Below, piece after piece: positions 15,118 to 22,558 of a stretch of DNA of 32,000 nucleotides (position 1 is its first letter; every line of letters starts with the position of its first letter). Source of the stretch: Ignicoccus pacificus DSM 13166 (GTDB lineage Archaea > Thermoproteota > Thermoprotei_A > Sulfolobales > Ignicoccaceae). The notes under the pieces were generated by a model. That model searched no databases, was not told where the DNA came from, and was given only the letters and a program-made list of their open reading frames with translations. Location of the stretch: NCBI GenBank assembly GCA_025340205.1, contig CP006868.1, forward strand, positions 1,560,001-1,592,000, in the 5' to 3' direction. The position numbers and the translations under genes are program-made.

Positions 15118-16395
15118 TTGCTGACCTTAGTCGTCCGAAGCAAGAGGGACGCGGATGCGCTAAAGAACATGTTGAAGAACTATCGAGGATCTTGGGACGC
15201 CGAAGTCCTTACCTTGAAGGGCGCTAGGGGGGAAAGGATCCTAGACGAACTACCTTCAATGGTATCATCTGATAGGATATACTTGGTCTTGCTAGGAAGG
15301 GAGGAGAAGGATATTGTAAGGGATTTGAGCAAGAAGACGCCGCCCAATGTCATAGTTCACATGGTACCCAAGAAGAGACTGAGAAACGCCAGATTAAGGG
15401 AGATGAGTTGGGAGTTGGAGGTCGCTAAAAGTCAACCTAGGCTCTGGTTCTCGTGGGAGGGGCCTCAAGCTTTTCTTAAAAAGAGATACATTAGAGGTGA
15501 GCCGGCCTCCGACTTGTTCTTGGGTTGGGGGCTTTGGTGGAAGACTCTAGGGATAGGTGATCCTTCACCAAAGGCATTTCTTGTGAAGAAGGGCGAAGGC
15601 GGATACCATGAGGTATATTCTAGAGGAAGAGTAGCCGCTATGTTCGAACTGGAAGACGATAGAGGTCCCGACACTACCTTGCTAGGGAAAGTAGAGGGCT
15701 TTGATTTGAAGAGGTTTGCAGAGTTAAGCAAAGACCTCGTGGAGAGCTTCGTAAAGGCTTCGGCTTCCTTGTTCGAAGGGTGTGAGCGCGTTGCCGTACC
15801 TTGGAGTGGGGGTAAGGATAGCACCGCTGCCTTGCTGATAGCTAAGAGGTTTTGTGATGACGTGAAGGCGATATATGTCGACACAGGAGTAGACATGGGT
15901 CTAAACATATACTATGTCAAGGAGTTAGCGGAAAGGCTTGACGTAGAACTTCATGTAGTCAAGGCCCCAGTCAAAGAGGAAATAGAAAGGAGGGGGTTGC
16001 CCCCAAAGGAGGACAGATGGTGTACAGGGCTCAAGATTAAGGCACTTGAGAACAAACTCAAGGAGTTAAAGGTAGACAGAGTGGTGGTTGGAGATAGGGA
16101 CGCTGAGTCTGTGTCTAGGTCTAAGAGGTGGGAGGTCAGGGAATGGGAAGGCGTTGGAAAAGTGATAGCTCCCCTGAAGCTGTGGAGTGCCGCCATGGTA
16201 CAGTCCTTCTTGATCTCCGAAGGCGTTCCGATAAACCCTCTCTATCCCTTAGGGTTCTACAGATTAGGATGCTACATTTGTCCTTTTTTGAGAAAGTACG
16301 AGAAGAGGTTGCTTAGGGAGGTAAGGGCCGCGAGGATGGGGGCAGACCTTAATCTGCTGAGGAGGTTTTTGGAGGGGGTTGACTTTGAGCTGTAG
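15118..16395 (+). CDS. PP-loop ATP pyrophosphatase of the PAPS-reductase family with an unknown N-terminal domain of about 210 aa
   Basis: 425 aa with a TTG start. VAVPWSGGKDSTAALL is the PP-loop. DRWCTGLKIKALE, VVGDRDAES, APLKLWS, INPLYPLGFYRLGCYICP follow the PAPS reductase/CysH-DndC-like pattern. I did not recognise residues 1-210. Confidence 0.8.
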   Translation: MLTLVVRSKRDADALKNMLKNYRGSWDAEVLTLKGARGERILDELPSMVSSDRIYLVLLGREEKDIVRDLSKKTPPNVIVHMVPKKRLRNARLREMSWELEVAKSQPRLWFSWEGPQAFLKKRYIRGEPASDLFLGWGLWWKTLGIGDPSPKAFLVKKGEGGYHEVYSRGRVAAMFELEDDRGPDTTLLGKVEGFDLKRFAELSKDLVESFVKASASLFEGCERVAVPWSGGKDSTAALLIAKRFCDDVKAIYVDTGVDMGLNIYYVKELAERLDVELHVVKAPVKEEIERRGLPPKEDRWCTGLKIKALENKLKELKVDRVVVGDRDAESVSRSKRWEVREWEGVGKVIAPLKLWSAAMVQSFLISEGVPINPLYPLGFYRLGCYICPFLRKYEKRLLREVRAARMGADLNLLRRFLEGVDFEL

Positions 16396-17136: not shown

Positions 17137-17592
17137 GTGTCAGCGCCAGGAGGAAAGAGCAAGGAGTTGAAGATTGTAGCAAGGCAAGTAGTAACGCTAG
17201 ATGACATAAAGAAGAGCAAAAGGATGATCACCGTACTGCACATAGTGAAGCACCTTGGTGAGATCTCCGAGAAGGGTCTAACGCACTTGCTCTACGAAAT
17301 GAAGGAAAAGGGAGTCGACCTAGGCTACCAGTTTGTTAAGATAGGAAAGGTAATAGGTAGCAACGAGGTTCACCAAGACATCCTAGATTTACTCTATGTG
17401 GGTCTCATGGAGAGGGTGCCGGGCAAGAACAAGCTACGCTTGACCTCTGACGGCGAGGAGTTCTTGGAGAAGTACGGTGGAATAGTTTCCGAGGATGAAC
17501 TAAAGAGGATACTGGAAGTGGTCGATGAATTGAAGAGTACCATCAGTACGATCGAGGCAGAGGCTGAGATGAAAGGTAGAGTAAGGTGGTAG
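17137..17592 (+). CDS. Winged-helix-like protein with a coiled-coil C-terminal tail
   Basis: 151 aa. GTG start preceded by GAGGGGGTGA. ITVLHIVKHLGEISEKGLTHLLYEMKEKG...GLMERVPGKNKLRLTSDGEEFL looks like HTH plus wing. Confidence 0.5.
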   Translation: MSAPGGKSKELKIVARQVVTLDDIKKSKRMITVLHIVKHLGEISEKGLTHLLYEMKEKGVDLGYQFVKIGKVIGSNEVHQDILDLLYVGLMERVPGKNKLRLTSDGEEFLEKYGGIVSEDELKRILEVVDELKSTISTIEAEAEMKGRVRW

Positions 17593-17599
17593 GTTTCAC

Positions 17600-18346
17600 A
17601 TGCCACTACCCTCCAAGAAGCCTGAAAAGATTTCATTAACTATCTTGTTAAAGCCCGAGCTCTCGGAACATCACATCAGTGCAGAGTATGGTCAGACGCC
17701 CTCAGATCTAAGAACTACTTTAGCTAACAAGCTCGGAGTCTCTCCAAACAGGATAAGGTTGTTCGTCAAGAGGCCCGATGGTTCGGAGTACGACATAACT
17801 CACACTTCCGAGAGCGTCGGATCCCTAGTACAGAAATATGGTTCAATTTGGTATGCAACCATAGAGGAGCCCTACGGCTCCTCCCTTCTTTTAGAGGCAA
17901 TAAGTACCTTTAGGGAACATTACCTTAGCTCCGAATACTTAAAGAAACACTTCCATCCATTGGCTGAAGATCCCGGTCTTGGAATTCATGCAAGGCTCTT
18001 ATGCAAAAAGCCTCAGTACTGCGCTAACAACAGACCCTACGACGTGTTCATCCTCCCGAGCGTGGGATATCCTAACACTGAGCCTCTAATATTCGTAAGT
18101 CCTAAGGTATGGCATAAGTGCTGTTTCTACACGCTCAATGAAGAGTACTTCAGAACTAAGGCTTTGGAATTCCCAGAACTAGCTCCTTCCTTGGAAAAAG
18201 TAGCTGAAATGGTTAGCATGTCCGTTAACGCATGTGTTATGCATCTAGAGTCTTGGGATTATATCAGGCAAAGCGAGAACCCTCTGGAGGTAGTGGCCCT
18301 TGCGCTATGCACGGACGTTGGACTCTGCCACAGTACCGGTGCATAG
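17600..18346 (+). CDS. Fusion of an N-terminal beta-grasp (ubiquitin-like) domain and a C-terminal E2/UBC-like domain
   Basis: 248 aa. Residues ~10-92 (ISLTILLKPELSEHHISAEYGQTPSDLRTTLANKLGVSPNRIRLFVKRPDGSEYDI...GSIWYATIEE) follow the ubiquitin beta-beta-alpha-beta pattern. Residues ~95-248 follow the UBC pattern: an N-terminal helix, a beta-meander, then YDVFILPSVGYPNTEPLIFVSPKVWHKCC. Compare E2 [30 protein letters not shown]...C. Assignment is by eye only. Confidence 0.55.
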   Translation: MPLPSKKPEKISLTILLKPELSEHHISAEYGQTPSDLRTTLANKLGVSPNRIRLFVKRPDGSEYDITHTSESVGSLVQKYGSIWYATIEEPYGSSLLLEAISTFREHYLSSEYLKKHFHPLAEDPGLGIHARLLCKKPQYCANNRPYDVFILPSVGYPNTEPLIFVSPKVWHKCCFYTLNEEYFRTKALEFPELAPSLEKVAEMVSMSVNACVMHLESWDYIRQSENPLEVVALALCTDVGLCHSTGA

Positions 18347-18686
18347 AGCACTGATCAACGCTGAGATCTTCGTTGACGTTCTCAGAAAAGGGGTGCAGAA
18401 CAAGTGCTACAAGATCTCAAAGGATGCGTCCGAAGACGTAATAAGCTTCATAGGGAAGATGGATGACGAATTGCTCCTCCTAGAAAGAGCGAGAGATGTT
18501 AGTGCTTTAGAGAAAGGACCCACTAGCGTAAAGACTGCTGACTTGAAGCCCGAGGACTTGGTCCTCGTGCACTACCACTGCGGAATCTCCCCCGAGCCGT
18601 CAGCTATAGACATAGATACGATGAGTTTGGCTCTAAGGGTTCAACTGCTAGCAACCATACCCGGAAGGCCCGCGTGTTCGGAATAG
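18300..18686 (+). CDS. JAMM/MPN+ (JAB) metallopeptidase, minimal prokaryotic type
   Basis: 128 aa. Exact JAMM motif H-Y-H-CGISPEP-S-AI-D (HxHx7SxxD) at 18570-18611, with an upstream Glu in SEDVISFIGK (E-x-x-x-x-F/L-x-G pattern). TTG 18300 is preceded by GGAGGT with 8-nt spacing. GTG 18339 is an alternative start. Confidence 0.75.
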   Translation: MRYARTLDSATVPVHRALINAEIFVDVLRKGVQNKCYKISKDASEDVISFIGKMDDELLLLERARDVSALEKGPTSVKTADLKPEDLVLVHYHCGISPEPSAIDIDTMSLALRVQLLATIPGRPACSE

Positions 18687-19096
18687 CCTCTCCTACCCAG
18701 AGCGGGAGATCCTTCTGTATCGACTTAGCCCTTTACGAACCCGTTCCTATGATGAGCATAGGCTATGAGGACATAAAGGTGAACGTGAAGGATTATTCGT
18801 TTATCAGAATAAAGAAGAAGGCTTTCATAAGCTACGAGATAGATGAAGGCGAACTGGCGATATATGGCGAACCTTGCTCTACGCCCGAAGAAGGATGTAT
18901 ACCTTACAGAGTGGGCTCCACGTCCAAGATAACATTGGAGGACTTCATATTCATTGGTTCCTACCACCTCAACACTAAACTCTCGGAATTTCCTTATGTA
19001 AAGATAACGGGTGACAAGGTTAGAGGTTATGCTATCAAGGTCTTTAACCTCGACGTGAAGAAGGCCGTGATAAGGGGCGTACCTTGGAGAGTGTAG
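18674..19096 (+). CDS. Hypothetical beta-rich protein embedded between the JAB and E1 genes
   Basis: 140 aa. The GTG start overlaps the JAB stop by 13 nt, and the stop overlaps the E1 start. No family recognised. Confidence 0.5.
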   Translation: MFGIASPTQSGRSFCIDLALYEPVPMMSIGYEDIKVNVKDYSFIRIKKKAFISYEIDEGELAIYGEPCSTPEEGCIPYRVGSTSKITLEDFIFIGSYHLNTKLSEFPYVKITGDKVRGYAIKVFNLDVKKAVIRGVPWRV

Positions 19097-19872
19097 CAAG
19101 GGGGTTTCAAGAGAGAACGAGCAAGTACATGAGTGACATGGGATACGATGTAAGCGATAAGAGCGTTCTAATAGGAGGAGTTGGCACTCTAGGCTCAAGG
19201 ATTCTCAGGAACCTTTCACGCTTCAATTTCAAGAAGATCTACGTGATAGACTTTGATGTGGTGGGTCCAGAGAACGTAGGTTATCAATGCTACCACAGCG
19301 AAGAAGTCGGTCTGAAGAAGGTTGAGTGCATAAGCAAGAGGTTTCAAAAGTTCCACCCATGGACGAACATAGAAGGTCTGTACCTAGAAGTTCCTACTCC
19401 TTCGGGACTCTGGAGCGAGGAGAGTTTCGAGAAGATTCGTTCCTTAGTAAAGAGCGTTGATATAGTGGTTACATCCTTCGACGTCCTCCCTCCTCGAGCG
19501 ACTCTCCTAGTGTTGGCTGTGAAATATAATAAATTCTTTATCGATACTGGACTTGGACCTACAAGAGGATATGTAAAGGTACTCCAAGAAGGTTATTGTC
19601 CTATATGTGGAAAGATCTGGGATGAGAGAGTAGCTTACTACACGAATCCCAACTTAGCAGAGCTGGTCGCCTCGCTAGCGTCCCAAGCGGTAATTCACCT
19701 ACTTAACGGCGTAGATTGGCCCAGCGAAGTCAGCATATACTTAGAAAATCCATGGAGACCTCTCATGGTTAGTAAGGTTAAGAACGATGGATGCAGGTTG
19801 TGTTCAGAAGAGGTTAAGGAGCTAGAGACTTCTGAAGAATTTTTGAGGTATATAATAAAAAACGCCTATTGA
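19084..19872 (+). CDS. ThiF/MoeB/E1-like adenylating enzyme (ubiquitin-activating-enzyme-like)
   Basis: 262 aa. VLIGGVGTLGSRILRNLSRFNFKKIYVIDFDVVGPENVGYQ aligns by eye with the ThiF/MoeB Rossmann segment (GxGxxG at 19174-19197, D-x-D, N-x-x-x-Q). Also GLKKVE, TSFDVLPPRATL and two Cys pairs, CPIC and CRLC (zinc site as in MoeB/ThiF). ATG 19129 is an alternative start. Confidence 0.8.
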   Translation: MESVARGFQERTSKYMSDMGYDVSDKSVLIGGVGTLGSRILRNLSRFNFKKIYVIDFDVVGPENVGYQCYHSEEVGLKKVECISKRFQKFHPWTNIEGLYLEVPTPSGLWSEESFEKIRSLVKSVDIVVTSFDVLPPRATLLVLAVKYNKFFIDTGLGPTRGYVKVLQEGYCPICGKIWDERVAYYTNPNLAELVASLASQAVIHLLNGVDWPSEVSIYLENPWRPLMVSKVKNDGCRLCSEEVKELETSEEFLRYIIKNAY

Positions 19873-19874
19873 TC

Positions 19875-21179
19875 TTACTTAGGCACTATCTTCTCGTATA
19901 GCTTCAGTCCAGTGCTGGGGCTCCAGAAGCCCACGTCCACGAAGGTAGGCTTGCCGTTGACTATCTTGACGGTCCATATGCTATAGCTGGTGGTTAGGGG
20001 CTCCTGATAGATGGCGTTCATGCTCTTCTGTCCGCTGAAGCCCTTGTAGATGTAGCTCATTTCAATTATAGCATGCTCCATTAGGTTGGGGTTGAAGCTA
20101 GCAGCCCTCAGAGCTCCTAGGGTCACTAGCCAGACGGCGTCGTATAGGGTGTCGCTGAACTCAACGGGAGCCTTTCCGTACACGCTCTCATAGTACTTGA
20201 TGAAGTTACCGGCGGTGTAGGGGGCGGTTCCTAGGACGTGCTTGATGGCTAGTATCTTGGCGACCACGGGATCAGCTAGCAGAGCAGGTCCCTTGACGGC
20301 CTCAGTGAAGAACCATGGATACTTCTGTAGTCCTAGAGTTAGAGCTTGTCTTAGTATGACCTTGATCTCGTCGAAGGCTAGCCAGACTATGGCTTGTGGG
20401 TTGTAGTTGTAGATGCTCCTTAGCTCAGCTAGGTAGCTCCTGGCGTTGGGATCGTAGGGTATCAGGTAGGCCTTACCTCCTAGGTTCTCGAAGGCTTGCT
20501 TAAAGGCTAGGGCGAATCCTCTTCCATAGTCGTCATTCCTGTAGAAGAATACCACCTTCTTGTAGCCGAAGCTGTGAACGACGCTGGCTAGGGCCTTTCC
20601 TTGGAATAGGTCGCTGCTGACGCTGAAGAAGACGTAGCTGTAACCCATCTTCTTGATAGCGGCCTCGTTGTTGAACCTCACTAGAGGAGAGGTGCTGGAG
20701 TGGCTCATTAGTATGACCTTCAGCTCGGTGTTGATAACGTCTTGCAGAGTACCGACAGCAGCACTGGTAGCGGGTCCGACTATCATGTGGACGTGGTCTA
20801 TGTTGACTAGCTTCCTAGCCTTCTCTAGAGCTATCTGAGGCATGGTCTGAGTGTCCTCGACTATTAGGGTGACGTGGAAGGGTAGACCTAGCTCCTTGAA
20901 GCACGTATTTATGTCCCTAACAGCTAGCTTGGCTGCGTACTGCTCGTCGGCGAAGGAAGCCAGAGCGCCGCTCAGAGGAATCAGAGCACCTATCTTGATG
21001 TTGGTAGTTCCTAGACCCTCCTTTACCTTCTCTAGACCTCCAGCTCTGTTGATAGCTATCTTGAGGTACTCACACTTAGGACCGCCGTACTTCTCTTGAG
21101 GAGCCGCATGGACCAAGACGGTGCCGAACACTAGGGCGGTTAGCAGGAGGGCGAAGATAACCTTCTTCACCACATTCAC
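19875..21179 (-). CDS. ABC transporter substrate-binding protein, LivJ/branched-chain amino acid type (paralog A)
   Basis: 434 aa. N-terminal signal/anchor. IKIGALIPLSGALASFADEQYAAKLAVRDIN...MIVGPATSAAV is the typical Peripla_BP_6 pattern. No adjacent permease or ATPase genes. Confidence 0.85.
   Translation of the reverse strand: MNVVKKVIFALLLTALVFGTVLVHAAPQEKYGGPKCEYLKIAINRAGGLEKVKEGLGTTNIKIGALIPLSGALASFADEQYAAKLAVRDINTCFKELGLPFHVTLIVEDTQTMPQIALEKARKLVNIDHVHMIVGPATSAAVGTLQDVINTELKVILMSHSSTSPLVRFNNEAAIKKMGYSYVFFSVSSDLFQGKALASVVHSFGYKKVVFFYRNDDYGRGFALAFKQAFENLGGKAYLIPYDPNARSYLAELRSIYNYNPQAIVWLAFDEIKVILRQALTLGLQKYPWFFTEAVKGPALLADPVVAKILAIKHVLGTAPYTAGNFIKYYESVYGKAPVEFSDTLYDAVWLVTLGALRAASFNPNLMEHAIIEMSYIYKGFSGQKSMNAIYQEPLTTSYSIWTVKIVNGKPTFVDVGFWSPSTGLKLYEKIVPK
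20313..20363. repeat. 51-bp tract identical to 21692-21742 (inside paralog A)
   Basis: CCATGGATACTTCTGTAGTCCTAGAGTTAGAGCTTGTCTTAGTATGACCTT is present in both paralogs. On the minus strand it encodes KVILRQALTLGLQKYPW. Confidence 0.9.
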
Positions 21180-21256
21180 CGAATGTGGTACGAGTGACCC
21201 ACTTTATAAAAGTTAGTTTTTAAGTTGGGGCATTACTTGATTAGGTAAAAATTAGG

Positions 21257-22558
21257 TTACCTTGGATGTATTGGCATGTATAGCTCGATTCCAGTATCAG
21301 GATCCCAGAAGCCGACCTTGACTACGGTAGGCTTGCCGTTGACTATCTTTATAGTCCAGTAGTGATAGCTAGTCTTCATCGGCTCTTGGGTCAGCGGGTT
21401 GAACTTCTTTGGTCCGGTGTAGCCCTTGAAGTAAGCTCCTACCTCGAGCAGCGCTTGCCTAATGGCATCGGCTTGATACTTTCCGGCCTTTAGAACGCTG
21501 AGGGCGGATAGCCATAGAGTGTCATAGATGTAGTCAGCATAGAGCATTGGAGGTATTCCGAACTTCTTCTCGTAGAGCTTAGCGAAGGCCTCGCTTCCTC
21601 CGGGTCCGGTTCCAATACCCTGCTTGAGGGCCACTATCTTGGCTAGGTAGGGGTCATTGAGGAGCACTCCTCTACAAGTCTCACTGAACAGCCATGGATA
21701 CTTCTGTAGTCCTAGAGTTAGAGCTTGTCTTAGTATGACCTTCAGCTCGTCGAAGGATATGAAGAGTATGGCGTCGGGCTTGCTAGCCGCGACCACTCTC
21801 AGCTCGGCGTCGAAGGTCCTGGCGTTAGGGTCATATGGGACTAGGACGACCTTGCCTCCATGCTTGGCGAAGTAGTACTTGAAGGCGGTAGCTAGACCTA
21901 CTCCGTAGTCGTCTTGCCTATACATTATGGTTACCTTCTTGTAACCAAGCTTGGCAGCTAGGTCAGCTAGGGCGTTTCCTTGAAGGAAGTCGTTAGTGAT
22001 AGCCCAGAATATGTAGGACTTTCCGGTCTTAGCGATATACTCCTTGTAGTTCTCAACTCTTAGATTGGGTGCAGTACTGGTAGCAGACATCACCACGACG
22101 TGAAGCTCCTCGTTGACGGGGTACATCAAGGAGCCCATGGGCCTGCTGGTGATCCTTCCAGCGATTATCTGAACTCCTTGGAGAGCTAGCTTTCTAACGA
22201 CCTCGACGGCGGTCTGAGGATCGGTCCTAGTGTCCTCGGGCAGGAACTTGAACCTCCAAGGCAGTCCAAGCTTTTCCATACAACCGTTGATCTCATCGGA
22301 GGCCAGCTTTATGGCGTTGTAGTTGGAGACGGCGAAGGATCCTAGAGCTCCGCTCAGGGGGGCGGGAGCTCCTATTAGGATAGTTTTAGGAAGGTGTATG
22401 TTGTTGACGCCGCCGGCCCACTCTACTACCTTCATAATACTCTCACAGTTAGGTCCCAGCTGGTAAGGCTGGGTTAGCAGGGAGAGCTCTTGCTTGCTCA
22501 AGCCAGCAGCGAAGAGCATCACTCCGAGAGCTAGAAATACTACCAGCGCCTTCTTCAC
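21257..22558 (-). CDS. ABC transporter substrate-binding protein, LivJ/branched-chain amino acid type (paralog B)
   Basis: 433 aa. Same architecture as paralog A (ILIGAPAPLSGALGSFAVSNYNAIKLASDEIN...). Tandem, same strand. Confidence 0.85.
   Translation of the reverse strand: MKKALVVFLALGVMLFAAGLSKQELSLLTQPYQLGPNCESIMKVVEWAGGVNNIHLPKTILIGAPAPLSGALGSFAVSNYNAIKLASDEINGCMEKLGLPWRFKFLPEDTRTDPQTAVEVVRKLALQGVQIIAGRITSRPMGSLMYPVNEELHVVVMSATSTAPNLRVENYKEYIAKTGKSYIFWAITNDFLQGNALADLAAKLGYKKVTIMYRQDDYGVGLATAFKYYFAKHGGKVVLVPYDPNARTFDAELRVVAASKPDAILFISFDELKVILRQALTLGLQKYPWLFSETCRGVLLNDPYLAKIVALKQGIGTGPGGSEAFAKLYEKKFGIPPMLYADYIYDTLWLSALSVLKAGKYQADAIRQALLEVGAYFKGYTGPKKFNPLTQEPMKTSYHYWTIKIVNGKPTVVKVGFWDPDTGIELYMPIHPR
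21692..21742. repeat. 51-bp tract identical to 20313-20363 (inside paralog B)
   Basis: See the feature at 20313-20363. The flanking 14 nt differ at only 2 positions. Confidence 0.9.

Follow-up and report, generated by a model that had tools for sequence, protein, structure and literature searches.

A ubiquitin-like domain fused to an E2-like domain in Ignicoccus pacificus is a probable precursor for release by a JAB peptidase

How can a ubiquitin-like (Ubl) domain serve as a protein modifier when the glycine that should end it lies inside a longer polypeptide? This question is raised by a gene of the archaeon Ignicoccus pacificus DSM 13166, found in a window (the whole stretch of DNA that was analysed) of 32,000 nucleotides spanning positions 1,560,001 to 1,592,000 of contig CP006868.1 (assembly GCA_025340205.1). 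The gene product carries a Ubl domain that runs directly into a ubiquitin-conjugating (UBC, or E2)-like domain, and G93, at the end of the Ubl part, is internal in the primary translation product. The initial annotation offered two readings, namely that the adjacent JAMM peptidase releases the modifier or that the Ubl domain is an adaptor that is never conjugated. JAMM-mediated release is the best supported of the two, because BubAB, a bacterial Ubl-E2 fusion, is cut after a conserved glycine by its cognate JAB domain; cleavage of the Ignicoccus protein is what we infer from this precedent. The computational checks proposed in the initial annotation all came out in its favour. Overall, we consider it somewhat better than an even bet that the fusion is a precursor, a Ubl modifier (amino acids 1–93, 10.4 kDa) translated in cis with the E2-like enzyme that serves it (amino acids 94–248, 17.6 kDa), and that the JAB enzyme frees the modifier.

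The gene and its product were defined as follows.

17600 to 18346, plus strand: Ubl-E2 fusion gene (predicted precursor); open reading frame (ORF), 100% identical to I. pacificus IPA_09200

In the ORF list the frame encodes 248 amino acids from its ATG. The NCBI model IPA_09200 has only 233, starting 15 codons downstream of the conserved ATG and cutting off strand beta-1. We regard that model as too short, since the residues between the ATG and its start are conserved in the orthologs and form part of strand beta-1. The initial annotation placed the start at 17627, which is codon 10 of the frame that truly begins at 17600; its residue numbering was nevertheless correct, and the G93 codon is indeed ggc at 17876–17878. 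A Shine-Dalgarno-like GGTGG for the fusion gene is located within the final codons of an upstream gene for a 151-amino-acid protein (described below). The orthologs in I. hospitalis and I. islandicus are already labelled ‘Ubiquitin-like domain-containing protein’ in UniRef.

To describe the fold, we used a full-length AlphaFold2 (AF2) model built from 12 homologs, with a mean score of 86 in the predicted local distance difference test (pLDDT) and a predicted template-modelling score (pTM) of 0.62.

17627 to 17866, plus strand: ubiquitin-like beta-grasp domain, amino acids 10–89; AF2 secondary structure and Foldseek matches

In this model, residues 10–88 form a beta-grasp with the order b-b-a-b-b-a-b, the strands covering residues 10–17, 22–29, 52–57, 63–65 and 83–88 and the helices residues 34–45 and 73–80. 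When the full-length model was compared with the PDB using Foldseek, the matches were UFM1, SUMO1, the TBCE Ubl domain and other Ubls (E about 1e-4, probability 1.00), and the target-normalised template-modelling (TM) score of the Ubl-domain matches was 0.72–0.77. UFM1 and SUMO were the best fold matches, and the domain was also paired with the Ubl domains of USP11, TBCE and PI3K. Model and Foldseek results agree with the earlier assignment of residues 10–92 to a beta-grasp. The UFM1 system offers a further likeness in that UBA5 is a minimal homodimeric E1. UFM1, too, starts as a precursor from which cysteine proteases remove what follows a single glycine, and its E2, UFC1, has no HPN motif. 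However, no significant sequence or profile similarity links the Ignicoccus proteins to UFM1, UBA5 or UFC1, and the position of the E2 cysteine differs.

The boundary between the two domains was then considered.

17870 to 17881, plus strand: junction P91-Y92-G93/S94, the predicted processing site, with G93 as the predicted C-terminal glycine; pLDDT below 50 and invariance of the glycine

Residues 91–93 (P-Y-G) have a pLDDT below 50, and G93 sits in this low-confidence linker. The initial annotation asked whether the YG junction is an exposed linker, and in the AF2 model it appears as an exposed stretch between two separately folding domains. Conservation was assessed with homolog searches covering 5.8 billion proteins, 1.8 billion representatives, and additional genome and metagenome scans. 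The family is small, comprising about 15 clusters, and every member is a Ubl-E2 fusion; no free-standing E2 version and no viral copy was found in these searches. Within 12 Ignicoccus/Desulfurococcales proteins, which are 58–76% identical overall, the motif IEEPYGS is invariant and is followed immediately by an indel of 0–5 residues. An invariant motif adjoining a segment of variable length is the signature of a domain boundary. Three distant types, at 24–27% identity, are also Ubl-E2 fusions: the metagenomic proteins P0017 and P0020, with the junctions SFGT and SFGG, and a 205-amino-acid protein, 25–27% identical, with the junction EQPYGS, from Asgard metagenome-assembled genomes (MAGs) that carry the labels Candidatus Wukongarchaeum yapensis and Hodarchaeota. 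In all homologs, Y or F stands before the glycine and S, T or G after it, ahead of the variable indel. G93 is thus invariant throughout, the Asgard proteins included, in line with the earlier expectation of a conserved glycine at this point. Judged from these sequences, conservation of the junction is above chance. In a 14-sequence full-length alignment the invariant residues include G93, P153, S154, Y157, P158, P162, P168, H172, C174 and N227.

The candidate processing enzyme is encoded by the next gene, which we call JAB-X after its two halves.

18300 to 18671, plus strand: JAB/JAMM domain, N-terminal half of JAB-X; motif and transitive profile homology
18432 to 18434 (E45), 18570 to 18578 (H91-x-H93) and 18600 to 18611 (S101-x2-D104), plus strand: JAB motif residues; alignments
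18669 to 18671, plus strand: CCC run, one base short relative to the orthologs, which splits JAB-X into ORFs 18300–18686 and 18674–19096; tblastn frame switch
18672 to 19096, plus strand: X domain, beta-rich C-terminal half of JAB-X; conserved in all family members

The initial annotation placed a JAMM-type gene next to the fusion, but the frame it referred to, 18300–18686 (128 amino acids), covers just the N-terminal half of a gene for about 265 amino acids. The zinc-binding and catalytic motif E-x(n)-H-x-H-x7-S-x2-D is present, and E45, H91, H93, S101 and D104 show no variation at any covered position in alignments of 5 and 19 sequences (in the second, P0034, with a truncated called start, does not reach E45). 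In the JAB-X homologs of the type found in the metagenomic loci L004 and L006, the spacing is HxH-x6-S instead of x7. The family link comes from the Asgard archaea, where the JAB, X and E1 domains are parts of a single protein. Using hhalign, the JAB-X alignment matched the Hodarchaeota JAB-X-E1 protein with a probability of 95.3% (E 2e-8, 210 columns), superposing E45, HxH and SxxD on E..HSH..SGTD, and the X domain aligned as well. The Hodarchaeota protein in turn matches Pfam Prok-JAB at 4e-7 (30.3 bits against a cut-off of 25). The Prok-JAB proteins of L004 and L006, compared with the same JAB-X alignment by hhalign, gave no match. The X domain, which sits between the JAB and E1 domains in the Asgard fusion protein, has no Pfam match and no significant PDB match. 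Its profile gave non-significant scores against the phage tail sheath-initiator gp64 and XkdS (E 0.16–0.19), which are probably noise.

In I. pacificus the JAB-X gene is split. Searches by tblastn with the JAB-X proteins of I. hospitalis and I. islandicus switched from frame 3 to frame 2 at 18665–18671, and adding one C to the DNA at the CCC run restores PGRPRVFGI. The downstream half-ORF, 18674–19096, encodes 140 amino acids, and GenBank lists the C-terminal half separately as IPA_09210. All other JAB-X family members retrieved are single polypeptides of 229–277 amino acids. Because every one of them is unsplit, the break is probably specific to I. pacificus, either an assembly error in a homopolymer or a recent lesion of this genome. 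Programmed frameshifting was considered and rejected, all orthologs being in frame. The JAB-X gene also overlaps the fusion gene by 47 nucleotides (18300–18346), where one stretch of DNA encodes both the end of the fusion protein (...ALCTDVGLC...) and the beginning of JAB-X (M-R-Y-A-R-T-L-D-S-A-T-V). Since both overlapping peptides are conserved across Ignicoccus, invariance at the C terminus of the E2-like domain may partly reflect a dual-frame constraint.

Type I Bub is the closest known system in its working mode. It consists of BubAB (a Ubl-E2 fusion), BubCD (a JAB-E1 fusion) and BubE (DUF6527), and its bacterial operons are also termed 6E.1 or DUF6527; BubAB was shown experimentally to be cut immediately after its conserved glycine by the JAB domain of BubCD (bioRxiv 10.1101/2024.11.21.623953). 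As in Bub, the Ignicoccus Ubl is fused to the N terminus of the E2, the junction glycine is conserved, a cognate JAB and a minimal E1 of the homodimer type are encoded alongside, and there is no E3. The Asgard relatives (L011 and L017) additionally resemble BubCD in having JAB and E1 on one polypeptide, with the X domain inserted. There are also differences. In Ignicoccus, JAB-X and the E1 come from two genes, and the JAB is followed by an additional domain, X; where BubB has Ser-x-His, the E2 carries an invariant His-x-Cys; there is one beta-grasp rather than up to three; the hosts are archaea; no DUF6527/BubE match to Pfam was present in 7 neighbouring ORFs of the window or in 5 ORFs of L011; and Pfam, PADLOC and NCBIfam models detect no similarity at the sequence level. 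Of these, the missing DUF6527 gene, the Cys in place of Ser in the E2 and the unfused JAB and E1 of Ignicoccus depart from features that define Bub.

The Bub precedent also bears on the alternative that the fusion is never cleaved and the beta-grasp acts as a permanent adaptor in cis, which we consider unlikely. Here the Ubl would dock the E2-like domain on the E1 or on JAB-X, or would be a built-in regulatory Ubl, while the E1 would activate another small beta-grasp protein encoded elsewhere, for example one of the ThiS/MoaD/SAMP type. Uncleaved Ubl domains are common in multidomain proteins, and those of USP11, TBCE and PI3K are among the Foldseek matches; additionally, a second ThiF gene lies nearby in I. 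islandicus, and every family member is fused, the searches having turned up no split version. An adaptor, however, would not need an invariant aromatic-glycine pair at the exact end of its domain, beside a variable, disordered linker. Moreover, the JAB peptidase and E1 are always adjacent, the cassette encodes no other Ubl that could be the substrate, and BubAB, with its equivalent architecture, is cleaved.

Release of the modifier would be followed by its activation, for which the cassette encodes a candidate enzyme.

19084 to 19872, plus strand: ThiF-type E1, 262 amino acids; Pfam ThiF, 2.8e-24

When the fusion, both JAB-X halves, the 151-amino-acid protein and the E1 were scanned with Pfam, PADLOC and NCBIfam, only the E1 was recognised. 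Its GxGxxG motif is at amino acids 32–37, and G32, G34, G37, R39, D56 and D133 are invariant in the alignment. PADLOC Cap2 E1-E2 models match the Rossmann part at 1e-11, and the best PDB sequence match is the adenylation domain of ATG7 (3.4e-8). We rejected a specifically ATG7-like identity. The link is non-specific because the Asgard homolog matches Uba1 best, and UBA6, NAE, UBA5 and MoeB also better than ATG7. The only cysteines conserved in the Ignicoccus, L004 and L006 E1s are two CxxC pairs, C172/C175 and C237/C240, whereas C69 and C82 are not conserved; two such pairs are the usual structural zinc site of MoeB/ThiF-type enzymes. Y185 (codon 19636–19638), in the motif A-Y-Y-T-N-P-N, is invariant in the same E1s. 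In the Hodarchaeota E1, a cysteine (K-C-T-V-A-S) falls opposite A184, the residue just before Y185, and HMMER places C507 of ATG7 in the A184 column too, within a second aligned stretch that is non-significant. In BubCD, Y370 is the only invariant residue of the crossover loop and is reported to form a Ubl~Tyr oxyester (Ye et al.). The Ignicoccus E1 resembles BubCD in having no crossover-loop cysteine and an invariant tyrosine, while the Asgard E1 differs from it by its crossover-loop cysteine adjacent to the tyrosine position.

The remaining part of the fusion is the domain that would receive the activated Ubl.

17879 to 18343, plus strand: diverged UBC (E2)-like domain, amino acids 94–248; domain-only AF2 model, Foldseek E2/UEV matches
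18113 to 18121, plus strand: H172-K173-C174, candidate catalytic His-x-Cys; H172 and C174 invariant in 15 sequences

Residues 94–240 are a separate domain in the full-length AF2 model. The E2 fold became visible with a domain-only model, the full-length model having given Foldseek matches for the Ubl domain only. Modelled alone from 15 sequences (pLDDT 94.5, pTM 0.90), the domain consists of a long N-terminal helix, a beta-meander and then helices. All of its best 50 Foldseek matches in the PDB, though weak, are E2 or UEV folds, among them the UEV-like domain of VPS37A (the top match), CDC34, Ubc9, UBE2K, UbcH5 and Rad6. In BFVD, an independent library of viral structures, the six best matches comprise five entries named as giant-virus E2s and one without a name.

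The candidate active site reads VWH172-K-C174-C175. The canonical HPN is absent, there is no Asn at +2 and no cysteine occurs 7–10 residues downstream. The initial annotation described a cysteine doublet directly after His172. The residues H172-K173-C174-C175 are found at 18113–18124, but K173 intervenes, and only C174 is invariant, position 175 being Val in the Asgard proteins. The residue between H172 and C174 is K, Q, Y or L across the homologs. The same annotation had also singled out this spacing as unusual, but it has a precedent in the invariant HPC motif of ATG3 and ATG10, in which the His is required for activity (PMC10851258). By the domain model and a non-significant alignment to UBE2D2, H172-x-C174 comes after the YPxxxP strand, at the start of the E2 active-site loop. 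In that alignment, the best local one obtained with hhalign, the family's invariant PS-x-GYP-x3-P falls onto YPFKPP, H172 onto the HPN His, and C174 at the position of the HPN Asn. The Ignicoccus proteins contain many Cys and His residues, namely C135, C141, C174, C175, C212, H215, C237 and C243. Among these, C141, C175 and H215 are nearly invariant, while C237 and C243 are specific to Ignicoccus and lost in distant homologs.

Taken together, these assignments suggest the following sequence of events. By the Bub precedent, the JAB/JAMM domain of the next gene product would cut after G93 (EEPYG/S), exposing the glycine carboxylate and freeing the E2. The ThiF-type E1, from its family membership, would be expected to adenylate G93. 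The Ubl could then pass to C174 of the E2-like domain, with H172 assisting as in the HPC motif of ATG3/ATG10. Because the Ignicoccus E1 has no crossover-loop cysteine, the Ubl may be handed over straight from the adenylate or by way of the invariant Tyr185. Conjugation to targets would presumably proceed without a dedicated E3, and the JAB enzyme probably also reverses it. Synthesis as a fusion would give modifier and E2 in a 1:1 stoichiometry and hold the modifier inert until it is processed.

Several observations weigh against this scheme. First, no free-standing Ubl ending at the equivalent glycine was found in the protein, genome or metagenome searches, and there is hence no natural control. 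Second, the JAB domain has no direct match to Pfam or Prok-JAB profiles; its assignment in Ignicoccus is transitive, since the link was obtained only through the Asgard JAB-X-E1 fusion protein, and the gene is frameshifted in this assembly. Third, the Ignicoccus E1 has no crossover-loop cysteine, with no Cys between C175 and C237, and the two routes suggested above for the E1-to-E2 step are tentative. Fourth, the Foldseek scores of the E2 domain are weak (E 0.03–0.3 and TM 0.27–0.47; in the PDB, best E 0.03 and TM at most 0.45), the domain has no Pfam, PADLOC, NCBIfam or PDB sequence or profile match, and hhalign of its profile to UBE2D2 and UFC1 gave a probability below 2%. Given these weak scores and negative searches, we describe amino acids 94–240 as UBC-like by predicted fold and strongly diverged, rather than as a proven member of any known E2 family. 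Finally, C135 is also invariant in the 15-sequence E2-domain alignment and nearly so in the full-length alignment; with a second invariant cysteine, the choice of C174 as the catalytic residue is positional, not proven.

The cysteine-poor E1 could also be read in terms of sulfur chemistry. The released Ubl would then be mainly a sulfur carrier, thiocarboxylated at G93 by the E1 as are ThiS, MoaD, Urm1, TtuB and CysO, with the E2-like domain as a persulfide or sulfur-relay partner and the JAB only trimming, as in QbsD/QbsE and Mec+/CysO. The enzyme does resemble the E1s of sulfur carriers, being a minimal ThiF/MoeB-type protein that has CxxC zinc pairs but lacks a catalytic Cys, and many JAB+E1+ThiS/MoaD sulfur operons have been listed (Iyer et al., PMC1779556). 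Additionally, I. pacificus has upstream, on the same strand (15118–16395), a gene for a 425-amino-acid protein whose C-terminal part is a PAPS-reductase/PP-loop domain (Pfam 5.5e-30), a gene that is kept in I. hospitalis. It is, however, absent from I. islandicus, from L004 and L006 and from the Asgard cassettes, and no rhodanese or cysteine-desulfurase gene is linked. The Ubl fold matches UFM1 and SUMO best, not ThiS or MoaD, and the partner domain has a UBC-like fold. A role mainly as a sulfur carrier is decidedly unlikely. As for the PP-loop gene itself, a link to sulfur or nucleotide chemistry is possible, outside the core module.

Very unlikely, lastly, is that the C-terminal domain is an inactive UEV/RWD-like scaffold or no E2 at all, its Cys and His residues binding metal or forming stabilising disulfides: the top Foldseek match is indeed a UEV-like domain with all scores weak, the Ignicoccus proteins are rich in Cys and His, and the Bub E2 was first called ‘inactive E2/RWD-like’ (Iyer et al., PMC1779556), but only H172, C174 and C135 stay invariant in the distant homologs, H172-x-C174 is placed at the start of the E2 active-site loop, and the ‘inactive E2’ of Bub proved active (bioRxiv 10.1101/2024.11.21.623953).

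Precursor release by a JAB enzyme, which we favour, can also be compared with other conjugation systems. With ATG3/ATG10 and ATG7, and with CBASS Cap2, the Ignicoccus cassette shares a cysteine two residues after a conserved His, not 7–8 after HPN, and a small E1 of the homodimeric type, as reflected in the ATG7 and Cap2 matches above. In contrast to ATG3/ATG10, the middle residue of the motif is never Pro; none of the ATG3, ATG10 or Cap2 structures is among the best Foldseek matches of the E2 domain; and the modifier is a fused Ubl rather than Atg8, Atg12 or a CD-NTase. In the bacterial ISG15-like (Bil) systems, Types I and II, the JAB protein BilC pre-processes the Ubl BilA after Gly97. The order Ubl (BilA), E2 (BilB), JAB (BilC), E1 (BilD) and a Cys-based E2 are shared with the Ignicoccus cassette, whereas in Bil the Ubl and E2 are separate genes and the E1 is a large, eukaryote-like enzyme that has a Cys domain besides its inactive and active adenylation domains; the PADLOC Bil models had no match in the cassette proteins. 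Polyubiquitin-like proteins fused to an ‘inactive E2-like’ domain were noted in bacteria in 2006 (row 6e of Iyer et al., PMC1779556).

Within the archaea, a comparison is offered by the eukaryote-like Ub/E1/E2/RING/Rpn11 operon that Caldiarchaeum subterraneum and Asgard archaea carry (PMC3082918, PMC5654768), which is likewise an archaeal operon with Ubl, E1, E2 and JAMM. There, however, the genes are separate, are readily recognised by eukaryotic Pfam models and include a RING E3, while here Ubl and E2 are fused, go unrecognised by Pfam and have no E3. The complete Ubl conjugation systems described before in archaea are either of the SAMP/Urm1 type, without an E2, or of this eukaryote-like kind. 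In literature searches we found no description of the Ignicoccus system or its archaeal family. It looks like an undescribed archaeal counterpart of Bub, a Cys-based precursor module that family databases miss. As a third archaeal type, it would be a compact module whose modifier is made fused to its own E2, present both in cultivable Ignicoccus and in Asgard MAGs. If the precursor interpretation is true, the cutting of a Ubl-E2 precursor by its own JAB, recently shown for bacterial Bub, extends to archaea, and its proteins would be thermostable material for structural work. A Cys-based E2 together with an E1 bearing Tyr or Cys at neighbouring positions would also make the origin of oxyester chemistry testable; the Cys/Tyr alternation at adjacent positions of the E1 bears on the origin of oxyester-based ubiquitination.

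A wider proposal is that Ubl-E2 plus JAB-X-E1 is an ancient archaeal conjugation module common to Asgard archaea and Thermoproteota and evolutionarily linked to bacterial Bub. Ignicoccus would run a mixed cascade, from an E1 Ubl~Tyr185 oxyester, analogous to that of BubCD at Y370, to an E2 Cys174 thioester, and the Asgard enzymes would keep a Cys at the adjacent E1 position. We regard this as doubtful. If it were true, the family would capture a Cys-to-Tyr switch toward the all-oxyester chemistry of Bub and would make available, in a hyperthermophile that can be cultivated, a minimal ubiquitination machine that processes itself and has no E3.

The gene neighbourhood was compared across genomes. 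A JAB-motif gene and a ThiF-type E1 adjoin the fusion in Ignicoccus, L004, L006, L011 and L017, with no other Ubl gene in the cassettes. The core module of Ubl-E2, JAB-X and E1 thus takes two genes in Asgard archaea and three in Ignicoccus; L004 and L006 have three and, in addition, a Prok-JAB gene. I. pacificus, I. hospitalis and I. islandicus have the same order, a gene for about 150 amino acids, the fusion, a gene for about 250–275 amino acids and the 262-amino-acid ThiF-type E1, and these genes are tightly spaced or overlapping. In the two-gene Asgard version, the 205-amino-acid Ubl-E2 fusion is followed by a JAB-X-E1 fusion of 601–659 amino acids with a canonical JAB (Pfam Prok-JAB 4e-7), a middle domain and a ThiF domain (1.9e-39).

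L011, 4800–5417 and 5339–7318: Asgard-type locus (Hodarchaeota)
L017, 5661–6278 and 6374–8179: Asgard-type locus (near-identical metagenome locus, its fusion protein equal to the Wukongarchaeum one)
L010, 4613–5230: Asgard-type locus

The genes flanking the Asgard loci look like housekeeping genes (KaiC/RadA-like, UPF0147, a zinc ribbon and radical SAM). In L004 and L006, which diverge most among the metagenomic relatives, the E1 is followed by a second JAB protein, a canonical Prok-JAB of 143–144 amino acids (L004 5562–5993; L006 2396–2830), besides the JAB-X homolog. L004 also has a DUF87/HerA-like ATPase, hinting at a mobile element.

Directly upstream of the fusion in Ignicoccus is one further conserved gene.

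17137 to 17592, plus strand: conserved gene for a 151-amino-acid protein, possibly winged-helix-like with a C-terminal helix; 8 nucleotides upstream of the fusion

Its orthologs, of 147–148 amino acids and 73% identical, occupy the same place in I. hospitalis and I. islandicus, and the gene is absent from the Asgard loci. The sole family match of the protein is a weak one to DUF2250 (E 0.087), and there was no significant PDB match, a DNA translocase coupling protein at E 0.011 being noise. Single-sequence and profile searches of the PDB with the fusion, the X domain and this protein likewise returned only noise, for example a peptide transporter.

On the other side, convergent to the cassette on the minus strand, 19875–22558 holds two tandem paralogous genes for periplasmic binding proteins of 434 and 433 amino acids. 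The orthologous loci also have Peripla_BP_6 genes, as a pair in I. hospitalis and as one gene next to the E1 in I. islandicus. Because these genes are shared, the cassette appears to occupy a partly syntenic chromosomal location with no obvious island, and the loci look chromosomal and syntenic, unlike defence islands.

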